DNA of 64,000 bases from a virus. The stretch lies in IMG/VR virus record IMGVR_UViG_3300033144_003548. One strand, given 5' to 3'. Shown here piece after piece: positions 22,574 through 43,144 of the stretch. Numbering within the stretch: the stretch's first letter is position 1; each line of letters begins with the position of its first letter. The notes under the pieces are model-generated. The model ran no database searches. It was given only the letters and a program-made list of their open reading frames with translations, and was not told the origin of the DNA. The translations under genes and the position numbers were made by a program.

Positions 22574-22903
22574 TCATTTAGCTCTTCCATAATCATCTTC
22601 TAACCTTACAACATCATCTACTTCTGGTGTAGAAACTTCGATAATAAAAGTATCGTGAATTGCTTTTATTCTGTGTTTAGTGAGTGGTGGTAAATGAATT
22701 GAGTCACCTGTAACCATCACATTAAGTTCATCATTTATATAGAACTCAGCCAATCCACTCAGTATATAAAGAGTTTCGTCTTTCACTTCGTGATATTGTA
22801 AACTTAACCTCTCCCCTCGTTTCACGAACAAGAGTTTGCCCACATATTTTTCCTCTTCAGCAAACCAAATTTCGTAGCCCCAGGGTTTATCTACGTGCTT
22901 CAT
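22574..22903 (-). CDS. Cupin protein (mannose-6-phosphate isomerase-like)
   Basis: DKPWGYE, LSLQYHEVKDET, EVSTPEVDDVVRLEDDYGR. Confidence 0.85.
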   Translation of the reverse strand: MKHVDKPWGYEIWFAEEEKYVGKLLFVKRGERLSLQYHEVKDETLYILSGLAEFYINDELNVMVTGDSIHLPPLTKHRIKAIHDTFIIEVSTPEVDDVVRLEDDYGRAK

Positions 22904-23069
22904 TTCCTCTTTAGAATCTCCACAATTTTCCAGCCGTACTCGTTAATCAATTTTGTGCGATAAGAAGATTCAAGCTTAGTAATAAAGGGATCTTCCATTT
23001 GTGCTACCTTTAATAGTAAGGCATCCAACTCCTTCGTTACTTCCTGATAAAGCTCAAACTTTTTCATTG

Positions 23070-23142
23070 AGCTGGCGGCAGGAATCGAACCCGCTACCAG
23101 TTGTTTACAAGACAACCGCTCATCCTTATGAGCTTCGCCAGC
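23070..23142 (-). tRNA. tRNA-Thr(TGT)
   Basis: GTTGT-CTTGTAA-ACAAC arm. Confidence 0.9.
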
Positions 23143-23148
23143 ATAAGC

Positions 23149-23217
23149 GGGGAAGTGGTCACAGGCTGTATAGCAAATCAATCGTGACCCAAATTTACGC
23201 TACATAACCACCTTCCC
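23149..23217 (-). ncRNA. Candidate structured RNA between tRNA-Pro and tRNA-Thr
   Basis: Terminal stem GGGAAG.GUGGUUA/UGACCACUUCCC and inner stem UGUAGC..AAAU/AUUUGCUAUA. Confidence 0.45.
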
Positions 23218-23296
23218 TGGTCGGGGTGAGAGGATTCGGACCTCCGACTCCGTGATCCCAAATCACGTGCTCTAAACCTGACTGAGCTACACCCCG
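23218..23296 (-). tRNA. tRNA-Pro(TGG)
   Basis: CGTGA-TTTGGGA-TCACG; CCA. Confidence 0.9.
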
Positions 23297-23551
23297 TCAA
23301 TACAATATTTTGCTTACATCAACAAGACCTTTTCCAGCTTTAACCAACCAATCTTTGCCCCACATCTTAGCAACCCTATTAAAAAGATCTCTATCTTCTA
23401 CAATAACGCTGTCGGTGCGTGGTACTCCCATCTCTTTATTTTTGCCCTCAGTGAAACAAAGGAATCTTAAATAGCAAGATTCACAATTATCAGGACAATC
23501 CATACATAAATAACCACCACCCTGTAAGAAGTGATAAACAACCTTCTTCAT
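23297..23551 (-). CDS. Cys-module protein
   Basis: CMDCPDNCESCYLRFLCFTEG. Confidence 0.7.
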   Translation of the reverse strand: MKKVVYHFLQGGGYLCMDCPDNCESCYLRFLCFTEGKNKEMGVPRTDSVIVEDRDLFNRVAKMWGKDWLVKAGKGLVDVSKILY

Positions 23552-23555
23552 AATG

Positions 23556-23629
23556 TGGAGGGCAGGAGACTCGAACTCCTAATCTTCTGCTTGCAAAGCA
23601 GTTGCTCTCCCTAATTGAGCTAGCCCCCC
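23556..23629 (-). tRNA. tRNA-Ala(TGC)
   Basis: G3:U70 pair, TGC anticodon. Confidence 0.9.
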
Positions 23630-23729
23630 TTTGTACATAAAGTAACGTGGTAAATCTTCCAAGTAAACCCAATCTAACCAGTAAATTCCATTTACCACAA
23701 TCCAAGCTCTAACATATAAGGATAGTTCT

Positions 23730-24095
23730 TCAAATTTGCGTTCCGCCAAAGTGACCTCTCGCATCAGGAACATTCCATCCCTTTTGCCTGAGAAGATCAT
23801 ACTCCCAGTCATTCTCTATTCGATTAGTAAAACAGAAGAATTTATGCTCACACGACTCACAATGAGTCAGGTAAATACTAAAAGCCTGTATGGTTACATT
23901 TCTTTCGTGCAATTTCCAGAAACACTCATCGTGGTGGTGTAAAATCCACAAACAGGAATGTACTGAACTACGATGACATTCAGGACATTTTATCAATGGA
24001 CCCTCTAACTTGTTGAACTCCACAAAATTGTGGCAATCAAAGCAATAGAGATACTTAGGAAATAAATGTTCCTTCTCTAATTTTATCAATTTCAT
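23730..24095 (-). CDS. Zn-ribbon plus Cys-module protein
   Basis: CFDC, CPEC, CESCEHKFFCFTNR. Confidence 0.7.
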   Translation of the reverse strand: MKLIKLEKEHLFPKYLYCFDCHNFVEFNKLEGPLIKCPECHRSSVHSCLWILHHHDECFWKLHERNVTIQAFSIYLTHCESCEHKFFCFTNRIENDWEYDLLRQKGWNVPDARGHFGGTQI

Positions 24096-24101
24096 AGTTA
24101 G

Positions 24102-24188
24102 TGGGATAGGCTAGATTCGAACTAGCTTAGTCACTACGGACGCCACTTTTACAGAGTGGTGCAACTCGCCTATCGTTGCCGCTATCCC
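24102..24188 (-). tRNA. tRNA-Tyr(GTA)
   Basis: CCACT-CTGTAAA-AGTGG, long variable arm. Confidence 0.85.
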
Positions 24189-24568
24189 AATTTATATTGT
24201 TCATATTCTGTACCCAAAGTTATAGAATTGCCACAAACCGAAGAAGGTATTAAATATTTATTGCCATCTGAAGTTAACACGAAAACAAAGTCAACCGCAT
24301 CTTTATTGAAATTCTTTATCTTGCCACTGCTACTTCTATTTCCACCTTTAATAGTTAAGCTAACAAAAAACCTGCCATACTTACTTTTGAAGGATGTTGT
24401 CTTAACTTGAATTCTTTTTAGCCCGTCAATATCAACAACTAAATCATAATCCTGGCTATCAGTAAGTGGTATGCTTACACTATATCCCTGTGATACAAAA
24501 TATCCGATAGCCGCACCTAACCCTACGTCACCTTGTTTTTTAGTATTCTTCTGCCTAAATCCAATCAT
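24182..24568 (-). CDS. PD-(D/E)XK endonuclease (group I intron-associated type)
   Basis: KQGDVG, GYSVSIPLTDSQDYDLVVD...RIQVKT. Confidence 0.8.
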   Translation of the reverse strand: MIGFRQKNTKKQGDVGLGAAIGYFVSQGYSVSIPLTDSQDYDLVVDIDGLKRIQVKTTSFKSKYGRFFVSLTIKGGNRSSSGKIKNFNKDAVDFVFVLTSDGNKYLIPSSVCGNSITLGTEYEQYKLG

Positions 24569-24774
24569 TTTTCCTTATTCAAATGATACAGACCATCTCT
24601 CAAAGTATACCACATCTGTGTCCATTCAGTGCCATTCAAAACTAAAATGTGATCTTTAGGCTCTGTAAAACACCTGAATCTTACTGGACAAGTATTACAT
24701 ATTCCGTCACAGCTAGTCTCTCTATAAGTAGTGTTATCCCTTGTTTTGATATAATACTTGAGTCTCCGTATCAT
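24565..24774 (-). CDS. Cys-module protein
   Basis: CDGICNTCPVRFRCFTEP. Confidence 0.7.
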   Translation of the reverse strand: MIRRLKYYIKTRDNTTYRETSCDGICNTCPVRFRCFTEPKDHILVLNGTEWTQMWYTLRDGLYHLNKEK

Positions 24775-25205
24775 TACAACAGAGCAGGTTGTAGCTCACT
24801 CACCTCCTCTACTTTGAAGTTTCCTTTAAGACTGTATTTTCCCCATCGGTATAATTTAAACCAATCATTATAAACCGTGTGAGGCATTTCATCCACGCTG
24901 ACTTCTTCTGCAAGGACAAAAAATTTAATGTTACAATCAGGACAACCAACCTCAACCATCGGTGCTAGTCCCCTGCGACAAGTGTATCCCATAAATTCTA
25001 ATGGTCTACCACACGTACAGTTTAATTCGTATAACATTCAAATCTCTCTTTACAAGTTTCGCACTCTACCTTACCTTTCCCTTGAAACTTACCATAAATG
25101 CCGTGACAAGAAAGATTAAATCGTGCTGCGGGTAGGTCTTTAAATATAGAATATACAGCACTCAGGAATATGATAATTGCAATAACGCACGCCAATTCCA
25201 TAATG

Positions 25206-25276
25206 CTCTCGGACTTGGGTTCGAACCAAGCTCTCCAGGTTCAAAGCCTGACGTGCTACCAATACACCATCCGAGA
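25206..25276 (-). tRNA. tRNA-Gln(TTG)
   Basis: Cloverleaf, CTTTGAA loop. Confidence 0.9.
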
Positions 25277-25280
25277 AATG

Positions 25281-25355
25281 TGCCGAGGAGAGGACTTGAA
25301 CCTCTAACGCACAGGGCTTCAACCTGTCGCTCTACCTGAATTGAGCTACCTCGGC
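25281..25355 (-). tRNA. tRNA-Phe(GAA)
   Basis: ACAGG-TTGAAGC-CCTGT. Confidence 0.9.
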
Positions 25356-25359
25356 ATAA

Positions 25360-25418
25360 GACAATCTGCTGATGGTCTACTTATCAGCAGTCATTTTGTG
25401 ACTACCACCTAGATTGTC
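25360..25418 (-). ncRNA. Candidate small three-way-junction RNA
   Basis: GACAAUCU/AGAUUGUC closing stem, AGUCA/UGACU and GCUGAU/AUCAGC hairpins. Confidence 0.4.
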
Positions 25419-25825
25419 CGCTTTGTATTTAGGAGAACTTCTTCAGAATAGCTTCTAGTCTCTTAATCTCTCCGCTCTCTACCTTAGTGCCAGTAGAAGC
25501 TTCAGCGATTTGAGCTTTGTTAGCCTTCTTGCGATCCTGACGATCAGATTGAAGTTTCAGTATCTCCTCTTTGGTCTTGGCTTCATCTTCGGCATCAGCT
25601 TTTTCGATTGCGGCTTTCAAGTTAATAAGTCCACCAAGCTTGCGATTAACCGTAGCAATCGCTTCCTGAGCCTCATCAATGACCACGTTAGGAATACCAA
25701 CAATAGCCAGCACGCCCTTTATAGTCCTTACGTCACCATTCTTGAAGCCTATCTCAGAGGTATACCTCTCCAACTCAGCAAGACCGAACTTTTTTGTAGT
25801 GACCATTTTCCGCTCCTTTCCTATT

Positions 25826-25854
25826 ATTCTAACATAAAATTGTTATATTGTCAA
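25826..25854 (-). promoter_or_regulatory. sigma70-type promoter
   Basis: TTGACA-17-TAGAAT with extended TG. Confidence 0.7.
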
Positions 25855-25861
25855 GTCCTTG

Positions 25862-25945
25862 TGTCGCTGGCGAGAATCGAACTCGCATACCCTCATCGGG
25901 CACTGGTTTTTAAGACCAGCGTGTATTCCGTTCCACCACAGCGAC
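25862..25945 (-). tRNA. tRNA-Leu(TAA)
   Basis: CTGGT-CTTAAAA-ACCAG, long variable arm. Confidence 0.9.
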
Positions 25946-26079
25946 TTTCTTCTGCATCATCTTATCCTTTTTGACGATAGTTTTGGCACTTTTAACGTGT
26001 CTAATAACACTCCCAGGGAGTGCCGCAGGATCTTCTTGATGAATCCTTAATACTTCATCCAAGTGAAATAAAGCTTCTT

Positions 26080-26346
26080 TCATTTGTTTACGTTTGTTGT
26101 GAGACATTTGTAGTCCAAAAACATTTTGCGTGCTTTTTGTTGACATAGAGGATAACTATAAGCATTGCAATTACTAAGTTCTTTACAAAAATCCTCGTCT
26201 TTTATTGTAAGTACTCTACGCTCAGTGTAGCAAATAAACCTAAATTTACAATTAGAACAATCATCACCCCCAAAACATCTAAATTCCCACCTATAACCAC
26301 GCAGAGAATCTTTATCTACAAATCTAATTACTTTAATTACTTTCAT
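26080..26346 (-). CDS. Cys-module protein
   Basis: CFGGDDCSNCKFRFICYTER. Confidence 0.7.
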   Translation of the reverse strand: MKVIKVIRFVDKDSLRGYRWEFRCFGGDDCSNCKFRFICYTERRVLTIKDEDFCKELSNCNAYSYPLCQQKARKMFLDYKCLTTNVNK

Positions 26347-26348
26347 TC

Positions 26349-26425
26349 TGGCGGGAGCGTAAGGATTCGAACCCTAATTTCCACGTTTTGGAGACGTGTG
26401 TTTTCTCCAGTTAAACTACACTCCC
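26349..26425 (-). tRNA. tRNA-Trp(CCA)
   Basis: CACGT-CTCCAAA-ACGTG; CCA end. Confidence 0.9.
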
Positions 26426-26805
26426 TAGCTCCTTATTTCTACTTTATAACCTTTAACATTAAAACCAGCTTTTTTGATCAAATTAACTATTTTTTCACCA
26501 TCTGCTTGAGTAAGCCTGTCTATTTCTAGAGTGATTGAGGCTTGACCACCAAATGTAGCCCAACTAAAATTAAAATTCCTTCTAGGAATACCACTAAAAA
26601 TACTGGAGAAATCGAATATTGACGGTGGCTCTGATGTTAGTATCTGATATGCTTCATTTATTTGTTTGAACTTGCCTGTTGCCTCTGGAGAGTGATTCAC
26701 ATCAGGATGCCACTGCTTCGCAAGTTTCCTATATGCTTTTTTAATATCATCTTTTGGTGCTCCATAAGGCAAACCAAGTATTCGATAACAATCAGGTCTA
26801 TTCAT
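26425..26805 (-). CDS. J-domain protein
   Basis: YRILGL...[17 protein letters not shown]...[11 protein letters not shown]. Confidence 0.9.
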
Positions 26806-26822
26806 TTAATCCCCACCATATG

Positions 26823-26906
26823 TGTCCGAGATAGGAGTCGAACCTATAACGCCTTTCGGCAACAGGGTTTGAGCCTGCCGTGTCTACCTATTTCCACCAC
26901 TCGGAC
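26823..26906 (-). tRNA. tRNA-Leu(CAA)
   Basis: GCAGG-CTCAAAC-CCTGT. Confidence 0.9.
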
Positions 26907-26947
26907 TTGATAAAAGTGTTTTAGGATTCGTAGGTTGAAACACTTTT

Positions 26948-26976
26948 ATTATAGCATATTTTCTCTCAAATGTCAA
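26948..26976 (-). promoter_or_regulatory. sigma70-type promoter
   Basis: TTGACA-17-TATAAT with extended TG. Confidence 0.75.
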
Positions 26977-27165
26977 GCCCTTTTAAGGTCTGCCCCACAA
27001 TGAGGACAATGTTTCCAACCTTTTGCCGTGAGTTCCTTACAACTAGAACATTCGGGATGCCCTGCTTTAATGTAACAATCACGGCATTGACAAAATCCGT
27101 GAGTCATACCTAGAACTCCTGAATCAGTATAACACACCTCAGTTTCCTTGCCACAAGTTGCACAC

Positions 27166-27548
27166 TTAAACACTCCTCACCTCCTCAATTAGCTTATCAG
27201 CACTATGCCAAATCCATTGATTTCCATCCCACATATAAACATTCTTCACACCAAACATTGGCATTAGAGTACTACAAATGCTACACCAAAATCTGGTAAA
27301 TGGATAGTCTTTTCCATTGGGAGTCATACAAAATATGTACATATCCTTTTGGACTTCGCTAAACCCCCCCACTCAGCGTGGTTTGCTCTACAGTCGGGGT
27401 AAGGTTGTTCAATATCTACCCTTTTACATTTAGCACAATCGCTGTAGAACTCACCATTAAAGGAGAAGACATCACCATTACTGGCAGCAAATTTAATTAC
27501 CTTACAGGGGGATTTTTTAGCTATTTCTCTAAATAACTCTATATTCAT
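27166..27548 (-). CDS. Cytidine/dCMP deaminase-like gene split by a -1 frameshift
   Basis: SPC...NG...HAE in the first frame; CSIC...GVKNVY in the -1 frame; junction at the G7 run 27364-27370. Confidence 0.6.
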
Positions 27549-27550
27549 TT

Positions 27551-27628
27551 TGGGGTGAGGTGTGGGATTCGAACCCACAGTAACGAGGGTCACAACCTCG
27601 CAGTTTAACCACTTAACTTAACCCCACC
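27551..27628 (-). tRNA. tRNA-His(GTG)
   Basis: G-1:C73, GTG anticodon, CCA. Confidence 0.9.
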
Positions 27629-27629
27629 A

Positions 27630-27845
27630 TCAATTAGTATAACAATTAAACCTAAATTGGCACTCATCGCAAGATGATTTGTGAAACATTCTACAATTAT
27701 AAAATATATGCTTCACCACATCTCTGTTATCTTGAACGAGTGCGGAAAGCATCACGGCTAAATGAGGTTTTATATCGTCAGGATGATTAAAGCCGTAGTG
27801 CATATACAAATGTTTAGCAGCTACACTCTCTAAGTATTCATCCAT
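27630..27845 (-). CDS. Cys-module protein
   Basis: C-terminal CRMFHKSSCDECQFRFNCYTN. Confidence 0.7.
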   Translation of the reverse strand: MDEYLESVAAKHLYMHYGFNHPDDIKPHLAVMLSALVQDNRDVVKHIFYNCRMFHKSSCDECQFRFNCYTN

Positions 27846-27902
27846 TACATTGATATTTCAATCAACTTCAAAGCGAAAACTTTTATACCAAACAACTCTA
27901 TT

Positions 27903-28140
27903 TTAGGGAGTTCTATCTTTATTTAATTGGGAAATAGGTGTTATGTTAGGTGGAGATGATTCTAAATTTACCATCCTAACGTTACACAAATCCATTTGGA
28001 ACAAAGCTGTAATCCAGTCGGGACACTTATTCCTAGCAAAGACTACAAAACCTATAGGATTACCACCGCATCGTTGACGTTCTCTTTCTACTCTTACTAC
28101 CTGAGTGTAAGGTAAAATCTCCTAGCTGAAATAGATTCAT
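27903..28140 (-). pseudogene. Internally deleted orotate phosphoribosyltransferase-like gene
   Basis: SD AGGAGG; MNLFQLGDFTLHSGSKS, then in another frame IGFVVFARNKCPDWITALFQM; PRPP-binding core absent. Confidence 0.5.
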
Positions 28141-28151
28141 TTTCCCTCCTG

Positions 28152-28222
28152 AGCGGTAGATGGGGATCGAACCCATATTTCAGACTTGGCAAGCCTGCGT
28201 TGCACCATTCAACTACTACCGC
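28152..28222 (-). tRNA. tRNA-Gly(GCC)
   Basis: Cloverleaf, TTGCCAA loop. Confidence 0.9.
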
Positions 28223-28227
28223 AATTC

Positions 28228-28303
28228 TGGCTCTCGGATTAGGATTCGAACCTAAGTTTCCTGGTTCAGAGCCAAGCGTCCTACCTGGTTAGACGATCCG
28301 AGA
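28228..28303 (-). tRNA. tRNA-Gln(CTG)
   Basis: CTCTGAA loop; CCA. Confidence 0.9.
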
Positions 28304-28675
28304 TTTCTCCTTTAATATGTTCACTAACGTAGGAAAAGGAATGTGTTTTGCTTCTGGCAGATCATAAAGCATCATTTTAGCACCAGCATAATTTAGGGTG
28401 TGTATTATAATTTGCTTACTCCTTATATTATTATCAGCGATGTATTTAGCTACCCACCACCCAGTGTTAGGGTCAAGAGAATCTACATAAACTTTCTCAC
28501 CTAAGTCGTGGTCTAAGAACATAATATCAAAATCGTTCTCATTCTTCAAGACTTCAATTGCTGTATCTCTAGAATCCGCCACGAAAATCACAGATTCCTC
28601 ATTAATCACATCTTTCAACAGTCTCAACAGAGTGTTTTGTCGTTCTACCATATCATCTAAGATAAATATTTTCAT
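28289..28675 (-). CDS. Receiver-fold protein (cyclic-phosphate-processing type)
   Basis: IFILDD...FLDHDLG...TG..VAK.I...IIIHTLN. Confidence 0.7.
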   Translation of the reverse strand: MKIFILDDMVERQNTLLRLLKDVINEESVIFVADSRDTAIEVLKNENDFDIMFLDHDLGEKVYVDSLDPNTGWWVAKYIADNNIRSKQIIIHTLNYAGAKMMLYDLPEAKHIPFPTLVNILKEKSRIV

Positions 28676-28677
28676 CT

Positions 28678-28754
28678 TGGCTCTGGTGGCTAGATTCGAA
28701 CTAGCATAATTCTCCTTAACAGGGAGGCATACTACCTAATTGTACTACACCAGA
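28678..28754 (-). tRNA. tRNA-Asn(GTT)
   Basis: CTGTTAA loop; CCA. Confidence 0.9.
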
Positions 28755-28765
28755 GTAATTTGTAT

Positions 28766-28987
28766 TCATAATTTAATTAATCTATATGTAGGATAGTATC
28801 TAGGTCTAAAGTGCCATTGTCTACTAAATTGAGACCTATCCACTATTACTTTACCAACATCTTTTATTGTGTCTCTTGTAGTATAGCAAAGAAATCTTAT
28901 TTTACACCGATTGCAGGAAAAGCGTTTGCAAATATAACCTAAATAATATTCACCACAGTCAACATAAATCAATATCTCTTCTATCAT
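28766..28987 (-). CDS. Cys-module protein
   Basis: CKRFSCNRCKIRFLCYTTR. Confidence 0.7.
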   Translation of the reverse strand: MIEEILIYVDCGEYYLGYICKRFSCNRCKIRFLCYTTRDTIKDVGKVIVDRSQFSRQWHFRPRYYPTYRLIKL

Positions 28988-28991
28988 ACTG

Positions 28992-29065
28992 AGGCAGCGG
29001 TGGGATTTGAACCCACATAAGACCGCTTTGCAGGCGGTTGCCTAACCAGATTCGACTACGCTGCC
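28992..29065 (-). tRNA. tRNA-Cys(GCA)
   Basis: ACCGC-CTGCAAA-GCGGT, U73. Confidence 0.9.
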
Positions 29066-29095
29066 ATTATCATCATTGCTCCATTATACTCCTTG

Positions 29096-29168
29096 CGGTC
29101 TGTACGGGTTTTGATCCCGTCCCTCATCCTTGACAGGGATGTATGCTCACCACTAACACCTACAGACC
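29096..29168 (-). tRNA. tRNA-Asp(GTC)
   Basis: CATCC-CTGTCAA-GGATG; atypical T-loop ATCAAAA. Confidence 0.85.
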
Positions 29169-29512
29169 TAAAACTTCATAATAATACCACTAACGGTTAT
29201 TACTGTATTACCTTCTTTATCGTGGATAATTTCATACCCCTCAGTGAAGGTTGTCATACCCTTAAAACTCACAAAATTTGGTTTGTCTGCCCTTTCTCTT
29301 ATTGAATTTAACGAAGCACACCCAAATGACAAATCGAATACTGCTCTAAACTCGTCACTCCCATTAAGTACCTTGCTTAATTCATACTTGATTGGTGAAA
29401 GCTCTCTTTCTCTATTAGTCCAGCAGATAAAGCGAAATTCGCAAGCTTTGCATTTTTCCGTGTCCAAAAGAATTGGAACTACTAATTTAACATTAAAAGG
29501 GTCATCTACCAT
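29168..29512 (-). CDS. Cys-module protein
   Basis: CKACEFRFICWTNR. Confidence 0.7.
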   Translation of the reverse strand: MVDDPFNVKLVVPILLDTEKCKACEFRFICWTNRERELSPIKYELSKVLNGSDEFRAVFDLSFGCASLNSIRERADKPNFVSFKGMTTFTEGYEIIHDKEGNTVITVSGIIMKF

Positions 29513-29928: not shown

Positions 29929-30005
29929 TACGGGCGGCAGGACTCGAACCTGCAAAACCTTGCTTCTAAGACAAGTACGTATGCCTTTAATTCCGTCACG
30001 CCCGC
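29929..30005 (-). tRNA. tRNA-Leu(TAG), short variable arm
   Basis: CTTGT-CTTAGAA-GCAAG. Confidence 0.85.
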
Positions 30006-30010
30006 TCTCG

Positions 30011-30089
30011 TGCCCTCAGCGAGATTTGAACTCGCATTCTCAGATCCATTACGGCTAAGAGTTTAGGAAACTCCCCCGACTATGAGGGC
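30011..30089 (-). tRNA. Atypical tRNA-Arg(CCT) lacking a canonical D-arm
   Basis: Acceptor GCCCTCA/TGAGGGC, GGAGT-TTCCTAA-ACTCT, T-arm GCGAG-TTCAAAT-CTCGC. Confidence 0.7.
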
Positions 30090-30281: not shown

Positions 30282-30560
30282 CTACAAACTCTCCGTATAA
30301 CATTTAAATCTATTATCACAATTATAGCACATTTTCTCCAGCGTGTCAAGTCCTACACATCTTTGCCTGACATACTCTCTACTATAATGATGATTTACAA
30401 CTAGCATCCAATAACAAGTAATTGCTCCAAAAGGTTGACCACATTTTGGACAAAGCCGTTCTTCTCTGCTACTGCCTGGAAGTCTCTTCCACTCAAATAC
30501 AGTTCTGGCAGAGGGGAAGAACTCCTCACAGTTCTCACACCAAAAAGAAAAATTAATCAT
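30282..30560 (-). CDS. Zn-ribbon plus Cys-module protein
   Basis: CENC, CPKC, CYNCDNRFKCYTES. Confidence 0.7.
   Translation of the reverse strand: MINFSFWCENCEEFFPSARTVFEWKRLPGSSREERLCPKCGQPFGAITCYWMLVVNHHYSREYVRQRCVGLDTLEKMCYNCDNRFKCYTESL
30321..30349 (-). promoter_or_regulatory. sigma70-type promoter inside a CDS
   Basis: TTGACA-17-TATAAT with extended TG. Confidence 0.6.
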
Positions 30561-30562
30561 CC

Positions 30563-30638
30563 TGGCACCCCTGGAGAGACTCGAACTCTCATCTTACGCT
30601 TTAGAAGAGCGTTGCTGTTCCAATTCAGCTACAGGGGC
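30563..30638 (-). tRNA. tRNA-Arg(TCT)
   Basis: ACGCT-CTTCTAA-AGCGT; CCA. Confidence 0.9.
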
Positions 30639-30830
30639 TTTCTTTACCATAAAAGTCGTATAACAATAAAATTTTATTGGACAACTCTCACATTCTTCAA
30701 GTCCATCATTATTATACTGATGACAATAACAATGAGACACAAAAGAGAAGTTATCACGATTGGGGTAATTCAAACAAATCCTAACCATTTGTTGCCTGAA
30801 AGGTACTTCTTTACGTCTAGACTTTGACAT
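30594..30830 (-). CDS. Cys-module protein
   Basis: CESCPIKFYCYTTF. Confidence 0.65.
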   Translation of the reverse strand: MSKSRRKEVPFRQQMVRICLNYPNRDNFSFVSHCYCHQYNNDGLEECESCPIKFYCYTTFMVKKAPVAELEQQRSSKA

Positions 30831-31233
30831 AATCTATACACCCACCTCTCTCAAAGTGAGCACAATTTACAGGAAAAGCAGGTCCATCCGCAGTTATAAA
30901 CTCTGGCAACTTTTCTCTAATAGAACAGTTAGTTATATACGGACAATCAATCTCCTCACAGGTAATTATTCTATCACTAATTATACCAGCCTTTGGACAC
31001 TCTATCTGTTGATTGCCAAAGTAACCAACAACCTTTCCCCACTCCTCAGTATAACATCTAAACCTCAAATGGCAAGTATCACATTTAGAGTTATCTTTTG
31101 AGGCGTAGGTTCGCTTCCAGCACTCTGCCATAAAAGTATCATCTTCCATAGATGACCTCAGCATCCTATCACTTTTTGCCTCGAATGGTTTTGTGCTAAC
31201 TTGTTTACTTCTCTTTTTATTCAGCTTAGCCAT
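30817..31233 (-). CDS. Cys-module protein
   Basis: CDTCHLRFRCYTEE. Confidence 0.7.
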   Translation of the reverse strand: MAKLNKKRSKQVSTKPFEAKSDRMLRSSMEDDTFMAECWKRTYASKDNSKCDTCHLRFRCYTEEWGKVVGYFGNQQIECPKAGIISDRIITCEEIDCPYITNCSIREKLPEFITADGPAFPVNCAHFERGGCIDYVKV

Positions 31234-31236
31234 ATG

Positions 31237-31313
31237 TTCCCCTGGCGAGACTCGAACTCGCAGCTAACCGAAGTTCGTAGCTTCGTGCTCTATCCAAATT
31301 GAGCTACAGGGGA
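31237..31313 (-). tRNA. tRNA-Arg(ACG)
   Basis: CGAAG-CTACGAA-CTTCG. Confidence 0.9.
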
Positions 31314-31669: not shown

Positions 31670-31915
31670 CTACCTAACTACAAGTGCTTCAAGCACCATA
31701 GATTTCTCGTCTGGTAATAAATGTAATTTAAGCTTACTTATACATTTATAAGGTTCTAGTTTAAAACAAGCCAAATCAAATCTGAAAGGTATAATCTCGG
31801 TTATGTAAGTACCACTATCAAACTCTTTGTGGATTCTCATCGTCATACACTCAAATCTACTTTCACAGTTATCACACGACTCGTGCAGTATTGGAAACCT
31901 AAAATTTACTTTCAT
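31670..31915 (-). CDS. Cys-module protein
   Basis: CDNCESRFECMTMR. Confidence 0.65.
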   Translation of the reverse strand: MKVNFRFPILHESCDNCESRFECMTMRIHKEFDSGTYITEIIPFRFDLACFKLEPYKCISKLKLHLLPDEKSMVLEALVVR

Positions 31916-31916
31916 A

Positions 31917-32009
31917 TGGTAGGCGTGGTAGGAATCGAACCTACACCTTGGGTATATCAGACCCTAAACCGCTTATAAGACGGTTGCACTGCCTTTGTGC
32001 TTCACGCCC
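31917..32009 (-). tRNA. tRNA-Ile with two tandem anticodon arms (TAT and GAT)
   Basis: ACCGT-CTTATAA-GCGGT, TT, AGGGT-CTGATAT-ACCCA, AGGT, T-arm, ACCA. Confidence 0.85.
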
Positions 32010-32230: not shown

Positions 32231-32841
32231 AACAGATCCATCTCCAGAGGCGGATTTACGTTTCTGTAGTATTCATCTACAATCGAAACGTTTGCAAATA
32301 ATGTTTCTCGATTAAACTTTTTACCAAATCCTTCGTGTATATGACCAAAGATGTGTATTCTTGGTTTGACTTCTCTAACCCTATCTAAAAGAGTCTCTGA
32401 ACCAGCCTCTCTACCGTTTACTGCTAAGTCTTGCATCCCTCTAGGTGGACCGTGTGTGATAAGGACATCTAATTTATCTGGTATATACCTCCACATCTCC
32501 CCCAACTCGTTGTCGGGCTTCATAAAAGCCCAACTACCAAACACGGGTGTATAAGGAGATGCCCAAAAGTTAATACCATCAATTACAATTCCCTTATTAT
32601 AAAGAACTGTAGCGTTCTTTAGCCACAATGAGGGTGGTCTTGATTGAAGAGCAAAATGAAAGTCGTGGTTACCAGGAGTAAATAGAATATGCTTGAAGTC
32701 CAGTGTCCCTAACCACTCATCAAACTTTTCAACCTCGTCTACTTTCCCCATCATCGTAGCATCACCAGCGTGGATTAGAACATCACCTGCTGGCAGTTTG
32801 GGAAAATGCCCGTGTGTATCAGCTATTGCTACTATTCTCAT
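32227..32841 (-). CDS. Calcineurin-like metallophosphoesterase
   Basis: IADTHG, HAGD, GNHD, THGPP, FGHIHE. Confidence 0.9.
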   Translation of the reverse strand: MRIVAIADTHGHFPKLPAGDVLIHAGDATMMGKVDEVEKFDEWLGTLDFKHILFTPGNHDFHFALQSRPPSLWLKNATVLYNKGIVIDGINFWASPYTPVFGSWAFMKPDNELGEMWRYIPDKLDVLITHGPPRGMQDLAVNGREAGSETLLDRVREVKPRIHIFGHIHEGFGKKFNRETLFANVSIVDEYYRNVNPPLEMDLL

Positions 32842-32967
32842 TTTCTGCCTTTTCTATCCACTTCCTAAATGGGCAATCGTTACAGATCTTAGCACCACGT
32901 TTCCTAACCGATTTGCAATTCTTATAAAAAACTTTACTCTTTTTAAGTTCTTTAAGTGTTATCATTC

Positions 32968-33043
32968 TGGTAGGGTCAGACGGATTCGAACCGACATTCC
33001 CTGTTCGAGAGACAGGAATCCTTAACCATTAGATGATGACCCC
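32968..33043 (-). tRNA. tRNA-Glu(CTC)
   Basis: CCTGT-CTCTCGA-ACAGG; CCA. Confidence 0.9.
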
Positions 33044-33881: not shown

Positions 33882-33910
33882 ATTATAACATATTGAAAAT
33901 GGTCTGTCAA
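33882..33910 (-). promoter_or_regulatory. sigma70-type promoter upstream of tRNA-Lys
   Basis: TTGACA-17-TATAAT with extended TG. Confidence 0.8.
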
Positions 33911-34107: not shown

Positions 34108-34172
34108 GTTACAAAATGTCGGCATTTATTCACAAATGTTGACGTTTCGTAACAATAAAAAATCCCTACGCT

Positions 34173-34249
34173 TGGTAGGGACGACAGGATTTGAACCTGT
34201 AACCTTCGGTATATCAGACCGATGCTCAGCCAGATTGAGCTACGTCCCC
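34173..34249 (-). tRNA. tRNA-Ile(GAT)
   Basis: TCGGT-CTGATAT-ACCGA; CCA. Confidence 0.9.
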
Positions 34250-34406
34250 TTTTAGTTTATTTATCTTATCAAGCAAGTTCCTTTCCTTCCTAATCATCTC
34301 GGCAGCACACAACTCGCTACCGTAAGTGCCCCAGGCATAATTATGGAAGGATCGGAGTTCTCGATACTCCTTTTCTAATTTTTCCAATTGTTTCAATTTG
34401 TCCATA

Positions 34407-34484
34407 TGGTAGGGGTGACAGGGATCGAACCTGCATAGCTACTTGTTTGTAGGACAAGCGTTCCACCAATTGAACTACACCCCT
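34407..34484 (-). tRNA. tRNA-Val(TAC)
   Basis: CTTGT-CCTACAA-ACAAG (C33); CCA. Confidence 0.85.
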
Positions 34485-35971: not shown

Positions 35972-35972
35972 T

Positions 35973-36260: not shown

Positions 36261-36422
36261 GTTGTGATTGTAGTCTTCTTTGAACTGACTTGCTATCTGC
36301 GACTTCGATTTCGCCTTCTTCCATTAGTTCATTACAGATATTTACTACTACTCTCAAGTCAAGTCCCAACCTCTCGACTATATCAGAATAATAAAGGATT
36401 TCGCCCGTCTTAAAAAGTTCTT

Positions 36423-37781: not shown

Positions 37782-38049
37782 CCAAATATTCCTTTATGAC
37801 ATCTCCGTGACAAGGTTGTGGTTTACAGAAACATCCCAATTTCTTGTTCTTCAAACGAGAAACCATAAGCACAAACATCGGGTCTTCAAGTTTGCCCTTA
37901 AAGTAGCTTCTATATCTCTCTATCACTTCTTCTCTTGTACCGTCTTTGCCAATTACAAAAGGATTACCAAAAGGAGAACCACGTCCAATGTAAATATAAT
38001 TTTTGTCCTTACATTTGTAGATATTAACTACTTCCGTTCTGTTGCACAT
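37756..38049 (-). CDS. DUF4326 family protein
   Basis: YIGRGSPFGNPFVIG..GTREEVI, LGCFCKPQPCHGDVI. Confidence 0.85.
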   Translation of the reverse strand: MCNRTEVVNIYKCKDKNYIYIGRGSPFGNPFVIGKDGTREEVIERYRSYFKGKLEDPMFVLMVSRLKNKKLGCFCKPQPCHGDVIKEYLDGLTEQKI

Positions 38050-38234
38050 ATAAATCTATCCTTACAATCCTTACAAAAATCGTAGAAACCACATCTATGA
38101 GGTTCGTCAATTACCTCACCACGACCACAAACCGTATATCTGATAAACTGCTTTTCGGTTTCACCGAAAGTAGTTACTTCGATTTCTTCCTTTGTACAAT
38201 TATAACACACTTTAAACTGACTGTCAAGCCCCAT
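38028..38234 (-). CDS. Cys-module protein
   Basis: CGFYDFCKDCKDRFICATER. Confidence 0.65.
   Translation of the reverse strand: MGLDSQFKVCYNCTKEEIEVTTFGETEKQFIRYTVCGRGEVIDEPHRCGFYDFCKDCKDRFICATERK
38199..38227 (-). promoter_or_regulatory. sigma70-type promoter overlapping a CDS start
   Basis: TTGACA-17-TATAAT with extended TG. Confidence 0.6.
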
Positions 38235-40184
38235 TTAAACTAAGCCATCTTTAATCCTTTGAATTCGTGGTAAACACCAACGTTCCCTCCATTCTTCTAC
38301 TATTATATCAAATTCTTTATAGTTTGTCAAGTCCAATGTATCGGTCTCTTCTCTCAGGAACTCTCTGTAGTTCTTGGCAAGAGGAATGACGTAAACTCCT
38401 CTAAAGTTTTCGATACTTTGAACCTTCCAATACTTGGAAAGCTTTTGATACCCCTTCACCACTCCATACTTTTCTTTTATTGAACCATCTTCGTTATAGT
38501 AAATTTCGGAGTGCTTACCTTTGGTTTTCTTGAAATCCTCACGCATCTGCTGTTTAACTTCGAGTGGAACAAGAACAGAGGAATAACCTTTAGATGTACC
38601 TAGATAAATAAATCCATCTAATCTATTGTAGAGACTAGATTTACCGTAAAGAGAAGTTACAGTCATCATCGCTAACCGATGACCATATTTGTTTTCAAAA
38701 TAATCTTGAACCTCTTTACTTTTTGTGGATAGAGCACATAACTTACCTGCTAAATAATTACCAAATTCTGGTGTTGATATACAATGCTGCACATTCATCA
38801 GGTAATTGATTCTCTTGCCCTTCCACTTGTTTTGGTGTGTCCAACCTATAAATTTATCTCTGATGGGAATGGTCAAATCGCTAGCCAGCCCCACAATTCC
38901 AATAATAAATCCAGTTTCACGATCCCGAACTAAGTAATGAATCCTTCTACCAACTTCACCACTATTTCCGCACCAAACAGGTTTTCCATTTCTCCTCACC
39001 ATAATAATCTGATTGGGTACTGTTACGCAATATATCTTACCATCATAGTCTACCCAACTTCTTTTATCTTTATGTGAGTTAGGATTATATGTATTATAGG
39101 TAGGATTAAAAGTAACTATATACGCTTTATTTCCAACGCTATTGATATAGCTTCGTAATTTGGTATTATAACCAAGTTTAAGACATATTTCACTAATGTC
39201 ATCTGCTAATCTTTTAGATATAGTACTATACGTTCTCTCTCTACTACCATCATTCCTATCTCTATTACATCCATCTCCCAACATAGCAAAATCTAACAAT
39301 AGTCTTAATTGCTTTTTAGGTAATCCCTTTATACAGGTAGGAATGTACTTACTATCTCTTTTTCCTAGCTTATTAAAATAAGCTGCCCAAACTTTGTTAC
39401 CCAAAACGATTCTTCTACTCTTCGTAGACTTCTTCTGTAACGAATACTTAATACCAGCTTTATCTAGCACATCTAAAAATGTATCTAACTTATCACCAGT
39501 ATTTTGTGTAAAACAAACAGAATACTTTGTAGTATGACCTTCAGCCAGATAGAAACCAAGTATTGATACGAAGGTGTTAATATCTAATACGACATCATCA
39601 TAATGTTTACCTTTTGGGATATGATCAACTTTTGGTAGAGTAAAATAATCTATATGATTACCACACCAGTCAAATTTAGAAGTGTATCTAACACATCTAG
39701 TAGACTCATCAGCCCTAATCAAGTTAAAATCTAAATGCTTATCCCTACTTATAAATAAATTATGATTCGGAGTAACTAACAAATCTATGCTGCCACTTTG
39801 TTTAAACATCTTACCACTATAGTGCTCATTGACATAGTGTGTTGGTAGTTGATACTCCAGCTTATTAGTCTCTCTATTAAGCGTTGCCACCTTAACACTT
39901 GGTATTAAATCGCAAAATCGCATCCAACCAAGCTCAGTTAAAATGTCTGTTTCCTCGTCATAACAAAGGGGTGCAGATGAGACGGTAACACGACCGTACC
40001 ACCATAAATCATTCAAATCTTTAGTTTCACAAAACTCTATATATGGTTGAATCTTCTCTACATCAGGAACAATCGCTTGAACAGCTTCCCACTTCGGTCT
40101 AATTTGTCCCAAACGTTTTGCATTCTTATCAATGTACTGCTGCCTAGCCTCAAGCAGTCTTTCTCTCAACTCTTCCTTATCCAA
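38235..40184 (-). CDS. DUF4338/DruA-like protein with an intein
   Basis: GRRIHYLVRD, RDKFIGWT, YLAGKL, TSLYGKSSLYNRL. Confidence 0.75.
   Translation of the reverse strand: MDKEELRERLLEARQQYIDKNAKRLGQIRPKWEAVQAIVPDVEKIQPYIEFCETKDLNDLWWYGRVTVSSAPLCYDEETDILTELGWMRFCDLIPSVKVATLNRETNKLEYQLPTHYVNEHYSGKMFKQSGSIDLLVTPNHNLFISRDKHLDFNLIRADESTRCVRYTSKFDWCGNHIDYFTLPKVDHIPKGKHYDDVVLDINTFVSILGFYLAEGHTTKYSVCFTQNTGDKLDTFLDVLDKAGIKYSLQKKSTKSRRIVLGNKVWAAYFNKLGKRDSKYIPTCIKGLPKKQLRLLLDFAMLGDGCNRDRNDGSRERTYSTISKRLADDISEICLKLGYNTKLRSYINSVGNKAYIVTFNPTYNTYNPNSHKDKRSWVDYDGKIYCVTVPNQIIMVRRNGKPVWCGNSGEVGRRIHYLVRDRETGFIIGIVGLASDLTIPIRDKFIGWTHQNKWKGKRINYLMNVQHCISTPEFGNYLAGKLCALSTKSKEVQDYFENKYGHRLAMMTVTSLYGKSSLYNRLDGFIYLGTSKGYSSVLVPLEVKQQMREDFKKTKGKHSEIYYNEDGSIKEKYGVVKGYQKLSKYWKVQSIENFRGVYVIPLAKNYREFLREETDTLDLTNYKEFDIIVEEWRERWCLPRIQRIKDGLV
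38964..39965 (-). mobile_element. Intein (334 aa) with LAGLIDADG endonuclease
   Basis: CYDEETDILT..GW, VTPNH, LGFYLAEG, MLGDG, IYCVTV...WCGN followed by Ser. Confidence 0.9.
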
Positions 40185-40452
40185 GATATTTCTCCCTCTC
40201 CTCTGGTGGTAAATCAGAGGTCATACCAACCTTTATGTTGGGTTTACGCTTTCTACCAGTAATCCCTCTCGATTCAGTGGTATGAAACCCTGGACCTTTA
40301 TAATGAACATAAACACGACCAAAAATTTGGTGGAGTGCTTCTTTCCCACACTCAGGACATACTTTGGAAGGGCTATTCTTATGCTGACTAAACGTTTGCA
40401 TTACCTCTAAACAATGTCCACACTCTGCACACTTGTACTCATATACAGGCAT
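40177..40452 (-). CDS. FmdB-family Zn-ribbon protein
   Basis: MPVYEYKCAECG...CPECG...YKGPGFHTT. Confidence 0.85.
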   Translation of the reverse strand: MPVYEYKCAECGHCLEVMQTFSQHKNSPSKVCPECGKEALHQIFGRVYVHYKGPGFHTTESRGITGRKRKPNIKVGMTSDLPPEEREKYLG

Positions 40453-40781
40453 CACTTCTTCCTTTTCGGAATTTTCTTTCGTGTATAACACTTGAATCTG
40501 AATTTGCAATCATCACAGGTTTCATATTTTTCGCACTCGAACAGAATTTCATAATCCCCCTTAATCTCTTGCCACTGTTTGCATCCCATCATATGCTCGA
40601 TGAGACATTCATAACAGAACCACCTATGACAGCCCCAACATTCACGTAAGTCAGTTATTCTATGACACCCTTGACACCATTTGGGCAAGTTAAAATCGGG
40701 AAATCTATCTCTGTTTCTAAACCCTATTCTATCTCTTGCAATTAAATTGTAAACCGCAAGATCACTAATTTCTACGTCCAT
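40452..40781 (-). CDS. Cys-rich protein with Cys module
   Basis: CEKYETCDDCKFRFKCYTRK. Confidence 0.7.
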   Translation of the reverse strand: MDVEISDLAVYNLIARDRIGFRNRDRFPDFNLPKWCQGCHRITDLRECWGCHRWFCYECLIEHMMGCKQWQEIKGDYEILFECEKYETCDDCKFRFKCYTRKKIPKRKK

Positions 40782-41347
40782 AGCTCCACAGAATCAATTT
40801 CATTACCCCAAGCATCCCAACCTTCCACCTTTTCTCTAGCAAAAAGTTCAATACGAGGCAAATCACCACACAACGATACTATTCTACTCCTTACCTCATT
40901 CGGTTTTGATGAGTGGATTCTTCTGTCTGGTATTGGTTCGTTCACAAATTGCAAGACGTAATGATTCTTGACGAGATGCCTCGTTCTTCCTCTTAACCCC
41001 AAAAAACATAACTCACAACTCCTTCTAGTGTAAGGAGTCAATGTCGTTCTGACCTTATTTTCATTGTGTAATGAACGCTTATTCCAAACGAAAGCAATAC
41101 CAGAATACTTAAATCCCCAAGCCTTCATAAACTCAGCAATACGGGGTATCCTGCTGTCAATAACCCACAAAAACAAGAAAGCATCGTCACCCACTATCGA
41201 TTTCACAGGTAATGACATTATCTCCTCATCTGTCATTACTCCATAAGGAACTTGTTTGCCCCCGCCAATCGAGCCAGCAGTTAATCCACCAAAAACATAC
41301 CCAGTATCCCAGGGGGGATCAGCGTAAATTATTTGGTACTTCAACAT
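40772..41347 (-). CDS. MT-A70 family methyltransferase (second copy)
   Basis: IYADPPW, HSSKP, RIELFAR. Confidence 0.9.
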   Translation of the reverse strand: MLKYQIIYADPPWDTGYVFGGLTAGSIGGGKQVPYGVMTDEEIMSLPVKSIVGDDAFLFLWVIDSRIPRIAEFMKAWGFKYSGIAFVWNKRSLHNENKVRTTLTPYTRRSCELCFLGLRGRTRHLVKNHYVLQFVNEPIPDRRIHSSKPNEVRSRIVSLCGDLPRIELFAREKVEGWDAWGNEIDSVELWT

Positions 41348-42329
41348 AAATCAATCCCAAAGATGGAAGAACCAGCGTGTAAATAATCTCATTCTCTTCT
41401 TAAAGAGGTTCTGATCTTCTTTGGACATTTCTAGACTCTTATCTAGTGTCTTTTTCGTCAGCTTCTCCCCCCTCTCAAACCATTTGGGTTGAACCTTGTT
41501 TACGTAATCATCCTCACAAACTCTCTTAGCAGCTTCCCAACCCTCAATCATTTCTTCTAGAAGATCAATCCACTTGCCGTAAGTAGAGGCTTTGCCATAA
41601 CCTGGGTAACTGTGAGCATTCTCCTGCATATGCCTCAGCATCTCAGGGATAATTCTCGCTAAGTAATAGTCGATACCCCAAGTATCGCAATCCGCCCAAC
41701 CACGTTTTCCTCTCTGGAAAAACCATTTTACTTTCCTGAGATTGTAAGGAATGTCTAAAACAAACCTTCTTACAGGAAACCAAACTCTCTCAAACAACGT
41801 AAGTTTGCGAGATAGAATATCATCCAAAGATGTATACTCTTCACACATATTAACCTCCATTGGGATGAAACTTATCCCATTCGTTTCGTTACTTACGTCA
41901 TTCGAACCCCTCGTTAGCTGTAAATTTCATAGCCATTTCTTGATCCAATCTAATCGGCGACGGTAGATCACTGTCCAACGTCTAGCAAAGTATTTTCGCT
42001 AACTGTTCCAATAATAATTTTCGCCTAAAAGACCCGTGCCTTCTAGGTCTTCATCAGTCTCAATGATGTTTGCCCACTTGTCAATACAAGTGAAGTCGGG
42101 AAAATCTTTAGGATAGCGAGGCACTTCGTCCTCAACTATCTCTACTATCTTTCCACCAATAACTTTTGCAAAGCCACCTTCTCTCAGTAAGACAACGTAG
42201 CTGCTAGTGTCGGGGTCAAGATAAGGTACTTCATCCCCAACCTTTAAATCCCTCAATTCGTTATAGAAGCACTTAACTTGACTACCATTTGGTAATGAAT
42301 CATAAACTCCCATTAACTTCTCCTTTTTC

Positions 42330-42403
42330 TGGTAGCGGGGGTGAGGGTCGAACTCACGGAGAGTTGCTTATGAGACAACTTTGAATACCGATTCTCCACC
42401 GCT
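42330..42403 (-). tRNA. tRNA with CAT anticodon (Met or Ile2), small D-loop
   Basis: GTTGT-CTCATAA-GCAAC; CCA; one acceptor-stem mismatch. Confidence 0.75.
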
Positions 42404-42545
42404 ATAATTTTCTATTGAATTACAATTTGCACAAAGACAACGATAATCTTCACTAATATACATCATCCACCAGTAAGGACATTCTGCCATTGGTATCTGA
42501 CATTTATCACAATTCCCTGGTTCGGGACATATTCTTGGGTCTGGT

Positions 42546-42827
42546 TCAGCCCACTTTAAGCAAGGTTTTTCCGCTTTCGTCATTTCTCTCTAGAACAACA
42601 GAATAAATATTTCCCTTGCCAGACCTTGATTTAACCCTTGCTATATCCTTTGTCTCCTCAATAATCCTGTCGAGAATTTTTTGCCCTATTTCAATATGAC
42701 TTAACTCTCTACCACGAAAAATCACGCTAACTCTAACTTCATCTCTAGCTAGAAGTCTTTTAACGTTCTTTATCTTTATGAGTAGGTCGTGCTCTGCAAT
42801 TTTAGGTCTAATTCTAATCTCTTTCAA
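42546..42827 (-). CDS. infC: Translation initiation factor IF-3, C-terminal domain only
   Basis: KEIRIRPKIAEHDLLIKIK...VRVSVIFRGRELSH.EIG. Confidence 0.85.
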   Translation of the reverse strand: MKEIRIRPKIAEHDLLIKIKNVKRLLARDEVRVSVIFRGRELSHIEIGQKILDRIIEETKDIARVKSRSGKGNIYSVVLERNDESGKTLLKVG

Positions 42828-43070
42828 TAATGACCTCTAATCCCACTGTGGGTCCCATCCATTCTTGCGTCTCCACCGCTCATACTCACCCCGTTTCTCG
42901 CAAGATGAGTGCCAATAACAAATCTCATCATTTGTATGAGCATCACACGTATTACACGGATTATGGTCTTGTATCAATTCATAGATGCGTTTACATTCAG
43001 GACAATCATCAATTGTTCCTGGATACCTAAGCTTATGCTTTCTGCACAACGATAATGTTCTTACCATATG

Positions 43071-43144
43071 AGCGTCTGGAGAGATTTGGACTCTCACTTA
43101 CTGGTTGGAAGCCAGTCGTGCTAACCGTTAAACACTACAAACGC
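43071..43144 (-). tRNA. tRNA-Gly(TCC)
   Basis: ACTGG-CTTCCAA-CCAGT; T-loop TCCAAAT. Confidence 0.85.

Follow-up and report, generated by a model that had tools for sequence, protein, structure and literature searches.

The tRNA punctuation of animal mitochondria was reportedly described by Ojala, Montoya and Attardi in 1981. In that system transcripts are polycistronic, tRNAs flank the open reading frames (ORFs) at distances of zero to a few nucleotides (nt), RNase P and a 3' endonuclease make the cuts, and the mRNAs have no Shine-Dalgarno (SD) motif and start at or near their AUG. Here we examine a similar arrangement in a 64,000-nt stretch of DNA (the window, always meaning the whole stretch) from an uncultured phage, IMG/VR record IMGVR_UViG_3300033144_003548, in which 14 ORFs begin with an ATG almost immediately behind a tRNA gene; the same pair of cuts is proposed for it, and two of its stop codons share their last base with position 1 of the next tRNA. 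Several features set it apart from mitochondria: the phage lives on a bacterium that uses SDs, a strong SD precedes most of the other phage genes, and only about half of the phage tRNAs are used in this way. Furthermore, several ORFs run 7-24 nt into the next tRNA rather than closing with partial stop codons, and both the RNA-based RNase P and the CCA-adding enzyme are brought by the phage itself.

Other described systems resemble individual parts of this arrangement. The plant mitochondrial t-elements and the MALAT1 mascRNA are tRNA-shaped elements that direct processing and so fix where adjacent RNAs end; these are eukaryotic tRNA mimics, whereas the phage elements are functional tRNA genes. 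In bacterial tRNA maturation, the trailer released by RNase Z carries a 5' phosphate, the B. subtilis enzyme cutting CCA-less precursors after the discriminator base N73 and that of T. maritima cutting after CCA. In S. coelicolor, CCA-encoding tRNAs are cut between C74 and C75 (PMC4681348). The positions of these cuts match those of the ATGs in the phage clade (N73-C/ATG, CC/ATG and CCA-N1-2-ATG), and CCA addition or repair is required in both settings, but the trailer is waste in these bacteria and would be functional mRNA in the phage. Bacterial leaderless mRNAs, among them lambda cI, Tn1721 tetR and the leaderless mRNAs of actinobacteria and Deinococcus (PMC9031893, PMC4681348, PMC4007540), likewise have no SD, an AUG at or a few nt from the 5' end (a putative end in the phage) and a strong preference for AUG. 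They are mostly primary transcripts that begin at the AUG, or products of the toxin MazF, whereas in the phage tRNA 3' processing would generate the 5' end, which would bear a monophosphate and often lie 1-6 nt ahead of the AUG. Within phages, the tRNA clusters of T5 (and T4) share the long same-strand array, small accessory ORFs, HNH genes, few promoters and ORF ends lying over tRNA 5' ends; in T5, however, the annotated ORFs after tRNAs all begin 13-34 nt downstream, with room for an SD, and none begins within 7 nt. A full-text literature search turned up no phage for which SD-less genes abutting tRNAs had been reported, and a differential RNA-seq study of phiKZ reported no leaderless phage transcripts (PMC8244752).

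The arrangement in the window is real, statistically strong and conserved in its clade. ARAGORN predicts 28 tRNAs, all on the minus strand, in a 12-kb array and a Gly/Met outpost at 42-43 kb, where the ORFs also lie on the minus strand. With N73 of each tRNA placed from its acceptor stem, 14 tRNAs are followed by an ORF of 48-138 amino acids (aa) that starts with ATG 2-6 nt past N73 (Table 1). Seven of these tRNAs (Thr, Ala, Tyr, Gln(ttg), Cys, Arg(acg) and Gly(tcc)) encode no CCA, carry C-A/T-N directly after N73 and have the ATG 2-6 nt past that base; the other seven (Trp, His, Asn, Arg(tct), Ile(tat), Glu(ctc) and Val) encode CCA and have the ATG 1-2 nt past it. An earlier, sequence-only reading of the window had listed 14 pairs of tRNA end and ATG, and every pair proved exact when the end is taken as N73 in CCA-less and A76 in CCA-encoding genes. 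Between 22000 and 44700, 3.95% of minus-strand positions precede an ATG-initiated ORF of at least 45 codons by 1-7 nt; against this positional null, direct junctions at 14 or more of 28 tRNAs have a binomial probability of ~5e-13. Across 79 unrelated phage contigs a direct ATG-ORF was found at 9 of 182 tRNAs, compared with 14 of 28 in the window (Fisher's exact p = 7e-9). The direct junction is not confined to this clade, and some ATG-ORFs 2-8 nt past N73 were seen in the unrelated IMG/VR contigs L020 (three cases), L013, L026 and L030.

The remaining tRNAs mostly lead to another RNA, a promoter or a clear SD, as had also been claimed from the sequence. Four have the next tRNA within 8 nt; a strong SD stands behind those for Met, Lys(ttt) and Gly(gcc), a weaker SD-like stretch (-6.0) behind Leu(caa), consensus promoters behind Ser(gct) and Leu(taa), and a terminator behind Ile(gat). 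A T5-type layout, with an SD-led ORF at least ~11 nt past the tRNA, fits only about five tRNAs (Met, Lys(ttt), Gly(gcc), Leu(caa) and Leu(taa)), and the 14 direct junctions do not fit it.

The absence of an SD from the junctions, which the earlier reading had derived from the lack of space, is supported by duplex energies. Upstream of the 14 junction ATGs the median anti-SD energy is +0.75 kcal/mol, compared with -6.9 kcal/mol for 111 other ORFs, 77% of which reach -5 or lower (Mann-Whitney p = 2e-6), a comparison that somewhat favours the other ORFs, each being represented by its best candidate start. Twelve of the 14 junctions have no SD (-3.3 kcal/mol or weaker). The possibility that the tRNA 3' end conceals an SD was considered and dismissed, SD-like bases being found there only at the two Arg junctions (CAGGGG), where they are the 3' strand of the acceptor stem.

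We consider it very unlikely that the direct ATGs are not real starts, with translation beginning at internal SD-led codons or the ORFs not being translated at all. No family could be matched to nine of the 14 ORFs, and internal candidates exist in four: M17 of the Ala ORF at 23503 is the clearest (-10.5), followed by M29 of the Arg(acg) ORF at 31149 (GAGGT, -6.8) and by TTG codons in the Thr (-5.1) and Tyr (-6.3) ORFs. An internal SD-led start may therefore be used in two to four of the 14 ORFs (Ala, Arg(acg) and perhaps Thr). For 9-10 ORFs, on the other hand, there is no alternative SD-bearing start codon, and in the cases that can be tested the junction ATGs are the true starts, as judged by domain alignments. 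The Pfam alignment of the cREC receiver-domain protein behind tRNA-Asn begins at residue 6, its N-terminus MKIFILDD forming the first strand of the fold, and alignments of four junction-ATG proteins in relatives begin at residue 1 (Metallophos, directly after the CCA of tRNA-Ala), 5 (HAD hydrolase, at an N73-C-ATG junction), 6 (DnaJ) and 9 (cREC). The Cys module that had been noted in seven of the 14 ORFs was recovered there as a strict CxxCxx[RK]FxC[YFW]T, with an eighth copy, a variant ending in CMT, in the ORF after tRNA-Ile(tat); membership of eight ORFs in one paralogous Cys-module family argues that they are coding. In the Ile(tat) ORF the module occupies residues 14-25 and leaves no room for a later start, and the Tyr ORF has a weak Zn_ribbon_8 match at residues 18-45 that its sole SD-like internal start (TTG 23996) would cut.

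Conservation was followed in three relatives: a complete 133,760-bp genome with terminal repeats (IMGVR_UViG_3300033149_001989; L001/L002), a metagenome contig whose cREC is 62% identical (L083), and a contig from the same sample as the complete relative whose cREC is 52% identical (L084). The complete relative has 25 tRNAs in largely the same order as the window. Direct junctions number six in it, seven in L083 and four in L084, and the tRNA/gene pairs differ from those of the window. The same layout thus recurs in all three relatives, with the distances again in a tight 1-7 nt class. Across the window and the three relatives there are 31 direct junctions, and all 31 use ATG in a search that permitted GTG and TTG; non-ATG starts occur in 4 of 11 SD-led tRNA-adjacent genes and in 17 of the 55 strong-SD genes of the window. 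The distances from N73 to the start fall into separate classes, with 31 at 1-7 nt, none at 8-10 nt and 11, all SD-led, at 11-19 nt.

Individual junctions persist, change or move between the two states. The cREC orthologues of the complete relative and L083 also stand behind tRNA-Asn with a 2-nt spacer, the length being kept across 62-94% protein identity while the bases vary (AG in the window, AA and TA in the relatives), and the L084 orthologue stands behind tRNA-Met as CC/ATG. L084 has three CC/ATG junctions, in which A76 of the CCA doubles as the A of the start codon. At tRNA-Thr the complete relative has the identical N73-CA-ATG junction but a different ORF. Genes for a phosphoesterase, a DnaJ protein and a phosphoribosyltransferase are SD-led in the window and direct in a relative; the DnaJ orthologue of L083, for example, starts directly after tRNA-Gly(gcc), and the L084 phosphoribosyltransferase, of a full 173 aa, begins as CC/ATG after tRNA-His. 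At 28060-28140 (minus strand) of the window, a strong SD and ATG after tRNA-Gly(gcc) lead into an ORF of only 26 codons that resembles a phosphoribosyltransferase N-terminus (...GDFTLHSGSKS...), and this copy is probably a decayed gene.

These comparisons also bear on the view that the junctions arise as a side effect while deletions compact a hypervariable accessory region and its cassettes turn over. No mechanism would then have been selected; ORFs would have been pressed against tRNAs that cannot be deleted, and would either be poorly expressed or share transcripts each of which yields a tRNA or an mRNA. The genome is indeed very tight, with gaps between ORFs mostly of -26 to +3 nt and stop codons that abut or overlap tRNA 5' ends, as T5 ORFs also do, and the ORFs between tRNAs have mostly been replaced: only cREC of the 14 is well conserved in the complete relative, and most of the others are small accessory proteins. 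We nevertheless consider this explanation unlikely. The array retains many non-coding gaps of 50-300 nt, proteins with defined domains stand at direct junctions (cREC, Metallophos, HAD, DnaJ and phosphoribosyltransferase), the spacer between tRNA-Asn and cREC has stayed at 2 nt through the base changes described above, and T5 retains SD spacers in a similar array. Compaction, moreover, predicts neither the exclusive use of ATG nor the empty zone at 8-10 nt.

Table 1. Direct tRNA/ORF junctions of the window, with promoters and RNA-processing genes.
Feature	Position	Strand	Details
tRNA-Thr(tgt) + 55-aa ORF	22900..23142	-	tRNA 23069-23142; N73 23070, no CCA (caa); ATG 23067; ORF 22900-23067
tRNA-Ala(tgc) + 84-aa Cys-module ORF	23297..23629	-	N73 23556 (cat); ATG 23551; stop abuts tRNA-Pro, gap 0
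tRNA-Tyr(gta) + 121-aa zinc-ribbon/Cys-module ORF	23730..24188	-	N73 24102 (cta); ATG 24095
tRNA-Gln(ttg) + 59-aa Cys-module ORF	25022..25276	-	N73 25206 (cat); ATG 25201
tRNA-Trp(cca) + 88-aa Cys-module ORF	26080..26425	-	encoded CCA, GA, ATG 26346
tRNA-His(gtg) + 74-aa ORF	27324..27627	-	CCA, AA, ATG 27548
tRNA-Asn(gtt) + 128-aa cREC receiver-domain protein	28289..28754	-	CCA, AG, ATG 28675; PF20274, 8e-13
tRNA-Cys(gca) + 73-aa Cys-module ORF	28766..29065	-	N73 28992 (cag); ATG 28987
tRNA-Arg(tct) + 92-aa Cys-module ORF	30282..30638	-	CCA, GG, ATG 30560; SD-like GGGG inside acceptor stem
tRNA-Arg(acg) + 138-aa Cys-module ORF	30817..31313	-	N73 31237 (cat); ATG 31233
tRNA-Ile(tat), 93 nt + 81-aa ORF, CMT-ending module variant	31670..32009	-	CCA, T, ATG 31915
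tRNA-Glu(ctc) + 48-aa ORF	32819..33043	-	CCA, GA, ATG 32965; ORF overlaps phosphoesterase gene start
tRNA-Val(tac) + 59-aa ORF	34226..34484	-	CCA, T, ATG 34405; ORF extends 24 nt into tRNA-Ile(gat)
tRNA-Gly(tcc) + 76-aa ORF	42837..43144	-	N73 43071 (cat); ATG 43067
tRNA-Leu(caa) + mini-ORF + DnaJ-domain gene	26425..26906	-	CAT, then 5-codon ATG GTG GGG ATT AAA TGA; DnaJ ATG 26805
Consensus promoter	33882..33910	-	12/12 with TG; drives tRNA-Lys(ttt) and downstream units
Other consensus promoters	30349-30321, 26976-26948, 25854-25826	-	array
RNase P RNA, bacterial class A	21437..22191	-	directly downstream of tRNA array; Rfam RF00010 pieces, E 4.6e-17 and 4e-9
tRNA nucleotidyltransferase (CCA-adding enzyme)	15941..17326	+	phrog_2244, 1e-71

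Transcription signals are sparse in the array. It contains only four consensus promoters (three matching at 12/12 and one at 11/12 positions, all with an extended -10) and one terminator, and none of the promoters precedes a direct ATG, from which we conclude that the direct genes lie inside long tRNA-containing polycistrons, as predicted from these signals. A search for promoters from which primary leaderless transcripts could start at these ATGs found none, the sole junction-overlapping match being a weak one (9/12) that contains the ATG itself. The terminator-like hairpin at 34162-34182 (minus strand; GTCCCTACCAAGCGTAGGGAT and then a T run) borrows its 5' arm from tRNA-Ile(gat), whose 3' acceptor strand and CCA serve in that role.

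ORF ends are placed as closely as the starts, five stop codons falling within -1 to +2 nt of the next tRNA 5' end. At 26425-26427 and 29168-29170 (minus strand) a TAG shares its final G with position 1 of tRNA-Trp and tRNA-Asp, respectively; an RNase P cut there would leave a UA 3' end, formally resembling the partial stop codons of mitochondria.

From the junction geometry and its conservation, both of which are read directly from the DNA, we infer a cut, a nuclease, a set of 5' ends and a mode of initiation. The chances seem to us evenly balanced that near-leaderless mRNAs are set free by an endonuclease, probably of host origin, that cleaves at or within the tRNA 3' end. The array and the Gly/Met outpost would be transcribed as a few long tRNA-ORF polycistrons, and the endonuclease would cut either after N73, in the manner of RNase Z, or after C74 within CCA, as in Streptomyces. 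The phage CCA-adding enzyme would complete or repair the released tRNA; the downstream product would be a 5'-phosphorylated mRNA whose new 5' end precedes the AUG by 0-6 nt, and its translation would follow the leaderless route, which depends on AUG and not on an SD. On the far side the mRNA would be bounded by a cut at the 5' end of the next tRNA, made by RNase P with the RNA subunit that the phage supplies. Leaderless translation favours AUG and requires a 5' phosphate (PMC9031893), and the restriction to ATG together with the empty zone at 8-10 nt is what 5'-end-dependent leaderless initiation would be expected to produce. To obtain both a tRNA and an intact AUG from the CC/ATG junctions, a cut inside CCA followed by CCA repair would be needed. 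This processing interpretation is plausible and supported by the sequence. It corresponds to the first of two explanations offered in the sequence-only reading, that tRNA 3' processing creates leaderless mRNAs: its premises hold (real, SD-less and ATG-only starts, separate distance classes, polycistrons and CC/ATG junctions), and the mechanism itself stays conjectural.

Several observations weigh against such processing. A phage-encoded RNase Z was rejected, no match to an RNase Z-like protein (Lactamase_B_2) being found in the complete 133,760-bp relative or a 55.9-kb fragment; the responsible nuclease is therefore hypothetical. Encoded CCA blocks B. subtilis RNase Z, and since seven of the 14 junction tRNAs encode CCA a different cut would be needed for them. 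At least four array ORFs (cREC, the Val ORF and ORFs of 96 and 128 aa) extend 7-24 nt into the next tRNA, so that a cut by RNase P would remove their stop codons, which means that processing cannot be complete before translation. Partial stops completed by A-tailing are no solution for cREC, whose final 15 nt overlap tRNA-Gln(ctg): where that tRNA begins, the cREC frame has just finished a codon. Over their first 42 nt, direct genes do not differ from SD-led genes in structure or A-richness (p = 0.33), and the idea of unusually open or A-rich start regions was rejected on these grounds. Finally, leaders of 1-6 nt reduce leaderless translation in E. coli, an effect of distance (PMC9031893).

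Some of these observations would be accommodated if initiation took place on the uncut precursor, beside the folded tRNA and independently of an SD, for example through an unstructured, A-rich start region or protein S1, with the tRNA acting only as an insulating or stabilising 5' structure and cleavage being unnecessary. ORF stops inside the next tRNA suggest that 3' ends are translated before processing, the relatives searched have no RNase Z-like gene, and the seven tRNAs with encoded CCA would resist RNase Z. Yet this is an improbable account in our judgement. A folded tRNA 1-6 nt before a start codon would, from the general structure of the ribosome, sit in the mRNA exit path of the 30S subunit, and the precursors form stable cloverleafs (-25 to -42 kcal/mol) that would fill it; loading of the 30S subunit next to a structure does not predict ATG-only starts or an empty zone at 8-10 nt; and the start regions are, as noted, no more open than those of SD-led genes. 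The second explanation of the sequence-only reading, that the upstream tRNA fold recruits ribosomes, meets the same obstacle in the exit path and found no support.

Returning to tRNA 3' processing, we raise a broader proposal tentatively and think it somewhat unlikely: that a mitochondria-like module exists in a clade of large phages, in which the leaderless state was selected to tie the synthesis of accessory proteins to tRNA maturation. If true, the module would be cut by the phage RNase P RNA and a host 3' endonuclease and its tRNAs finished by the phage CCA-adding enzyme, and accessory synthesis would no longer depend on pairing between SD and anti-SD, for instance where canonical initiation is disturbed by host or phage factors. 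If the main proposal holds, and near-leaderless mRNAs are released by tRNA 3' processing, tRNA punctuation would not be restricted to organelles, and phages of SD-using bacteria would possess a second route of expression that needs neither a promoter nor an SD. Such processing would also give bacteria a natural supply of leaderless mRNAs that does not rely on the disputed MazF route, and would suggest a reason for the CCA-adding enzymes of tRNA-rich phages and for the RNase P RNA of this clade. In practical terms, gene callers will overlook or shorten tRNA-abutting genes if they insist on an SD or a spacer, and the rule at the junction is simple enough (ATG 1-7 nt past N73, never GTG or TTG, never at 8-10 nt) to be usable for compact tRNA-mRNA operons.

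Minimal ORFs also occur behind tRNAs. The stop codon of the mini-ORF after tRNA-Leu(caa) overlaps the ATG of the DnaJ gene as ATGA. Behind tRNA-Pro, at 23198-23217 (minus strand), the SD-like GGGAAGGTGG is followed by the minimal ORF ATG TAG, and in the complete relative several tRNAs lead at once into mini-ORFs of 2-3 codons, such as CCA-AA-ATG-AAA-TGA.

With regard to the tRNAs themselves, CCA-less phage tRNA genes nearly always keep a C at position 74 and often an A at 75. These bases were rejected as a clade-specific processing signal, C74 being present in 90% of cases here and in 73% of 88 unrelated phage loci; retention of C74 hints at a general preference in 3' processing or CCA repair. 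Rfam agrees on 26 of the 28 ARAGORN tRNAs and adds two at 29929-30005 and 30011-30089 (minus strand), which score 52 and 35 bits and were missed by ARAGORN; relatives have tRNA-Leu(tag) at this place. The first of the two has an apparent CUUAGAA anticodon loop and a short, type-I-sized body.

The RNase P RNA of the window is interrupted by a 167-aa HNH ORF (21586-22089), whereas the complete relative carries an uninterrupted copy in the same position (L093, G001:88978-89352; 176 bits, above the Rfam cut-off). Homologues of the CCA-adding enzyme (PF01743) are present in both relatives searched.

The source phage is large, has ~39% G+C and shows a strong strand-specific GC skew. The window has no DNA-level relatives among 50,697 deposited phage genomes, and its DNA polymerase shares no more than 33% identity with that of any cultured or deposited phage in the same set. 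Its gene content includes replication proteins, the CCA-adding enzyme, a peptide deformylase and a Ro60/TROVE protein. Near the gene for the CCA-adding enzyme lie those for the peptide deformylase (14631-15119, plus strand; PF01327, 6e-29) and for an FAD-dependent protein (12698-14023, plus strand) with weak, mostly sub-threshold GidA and HI0933-like matches. In a 649-aa ORF at 38235-40184 (minus strand), a LAGLIDADG-like domain is found together with a DruA (Druantia) domain (PF14236, 1.8e-22), and the Ro60/TROVE protein, which has a vWA domain, is encoded at 43339-44655 (minus strand), just upstream of tRNA-Gly(tcc).

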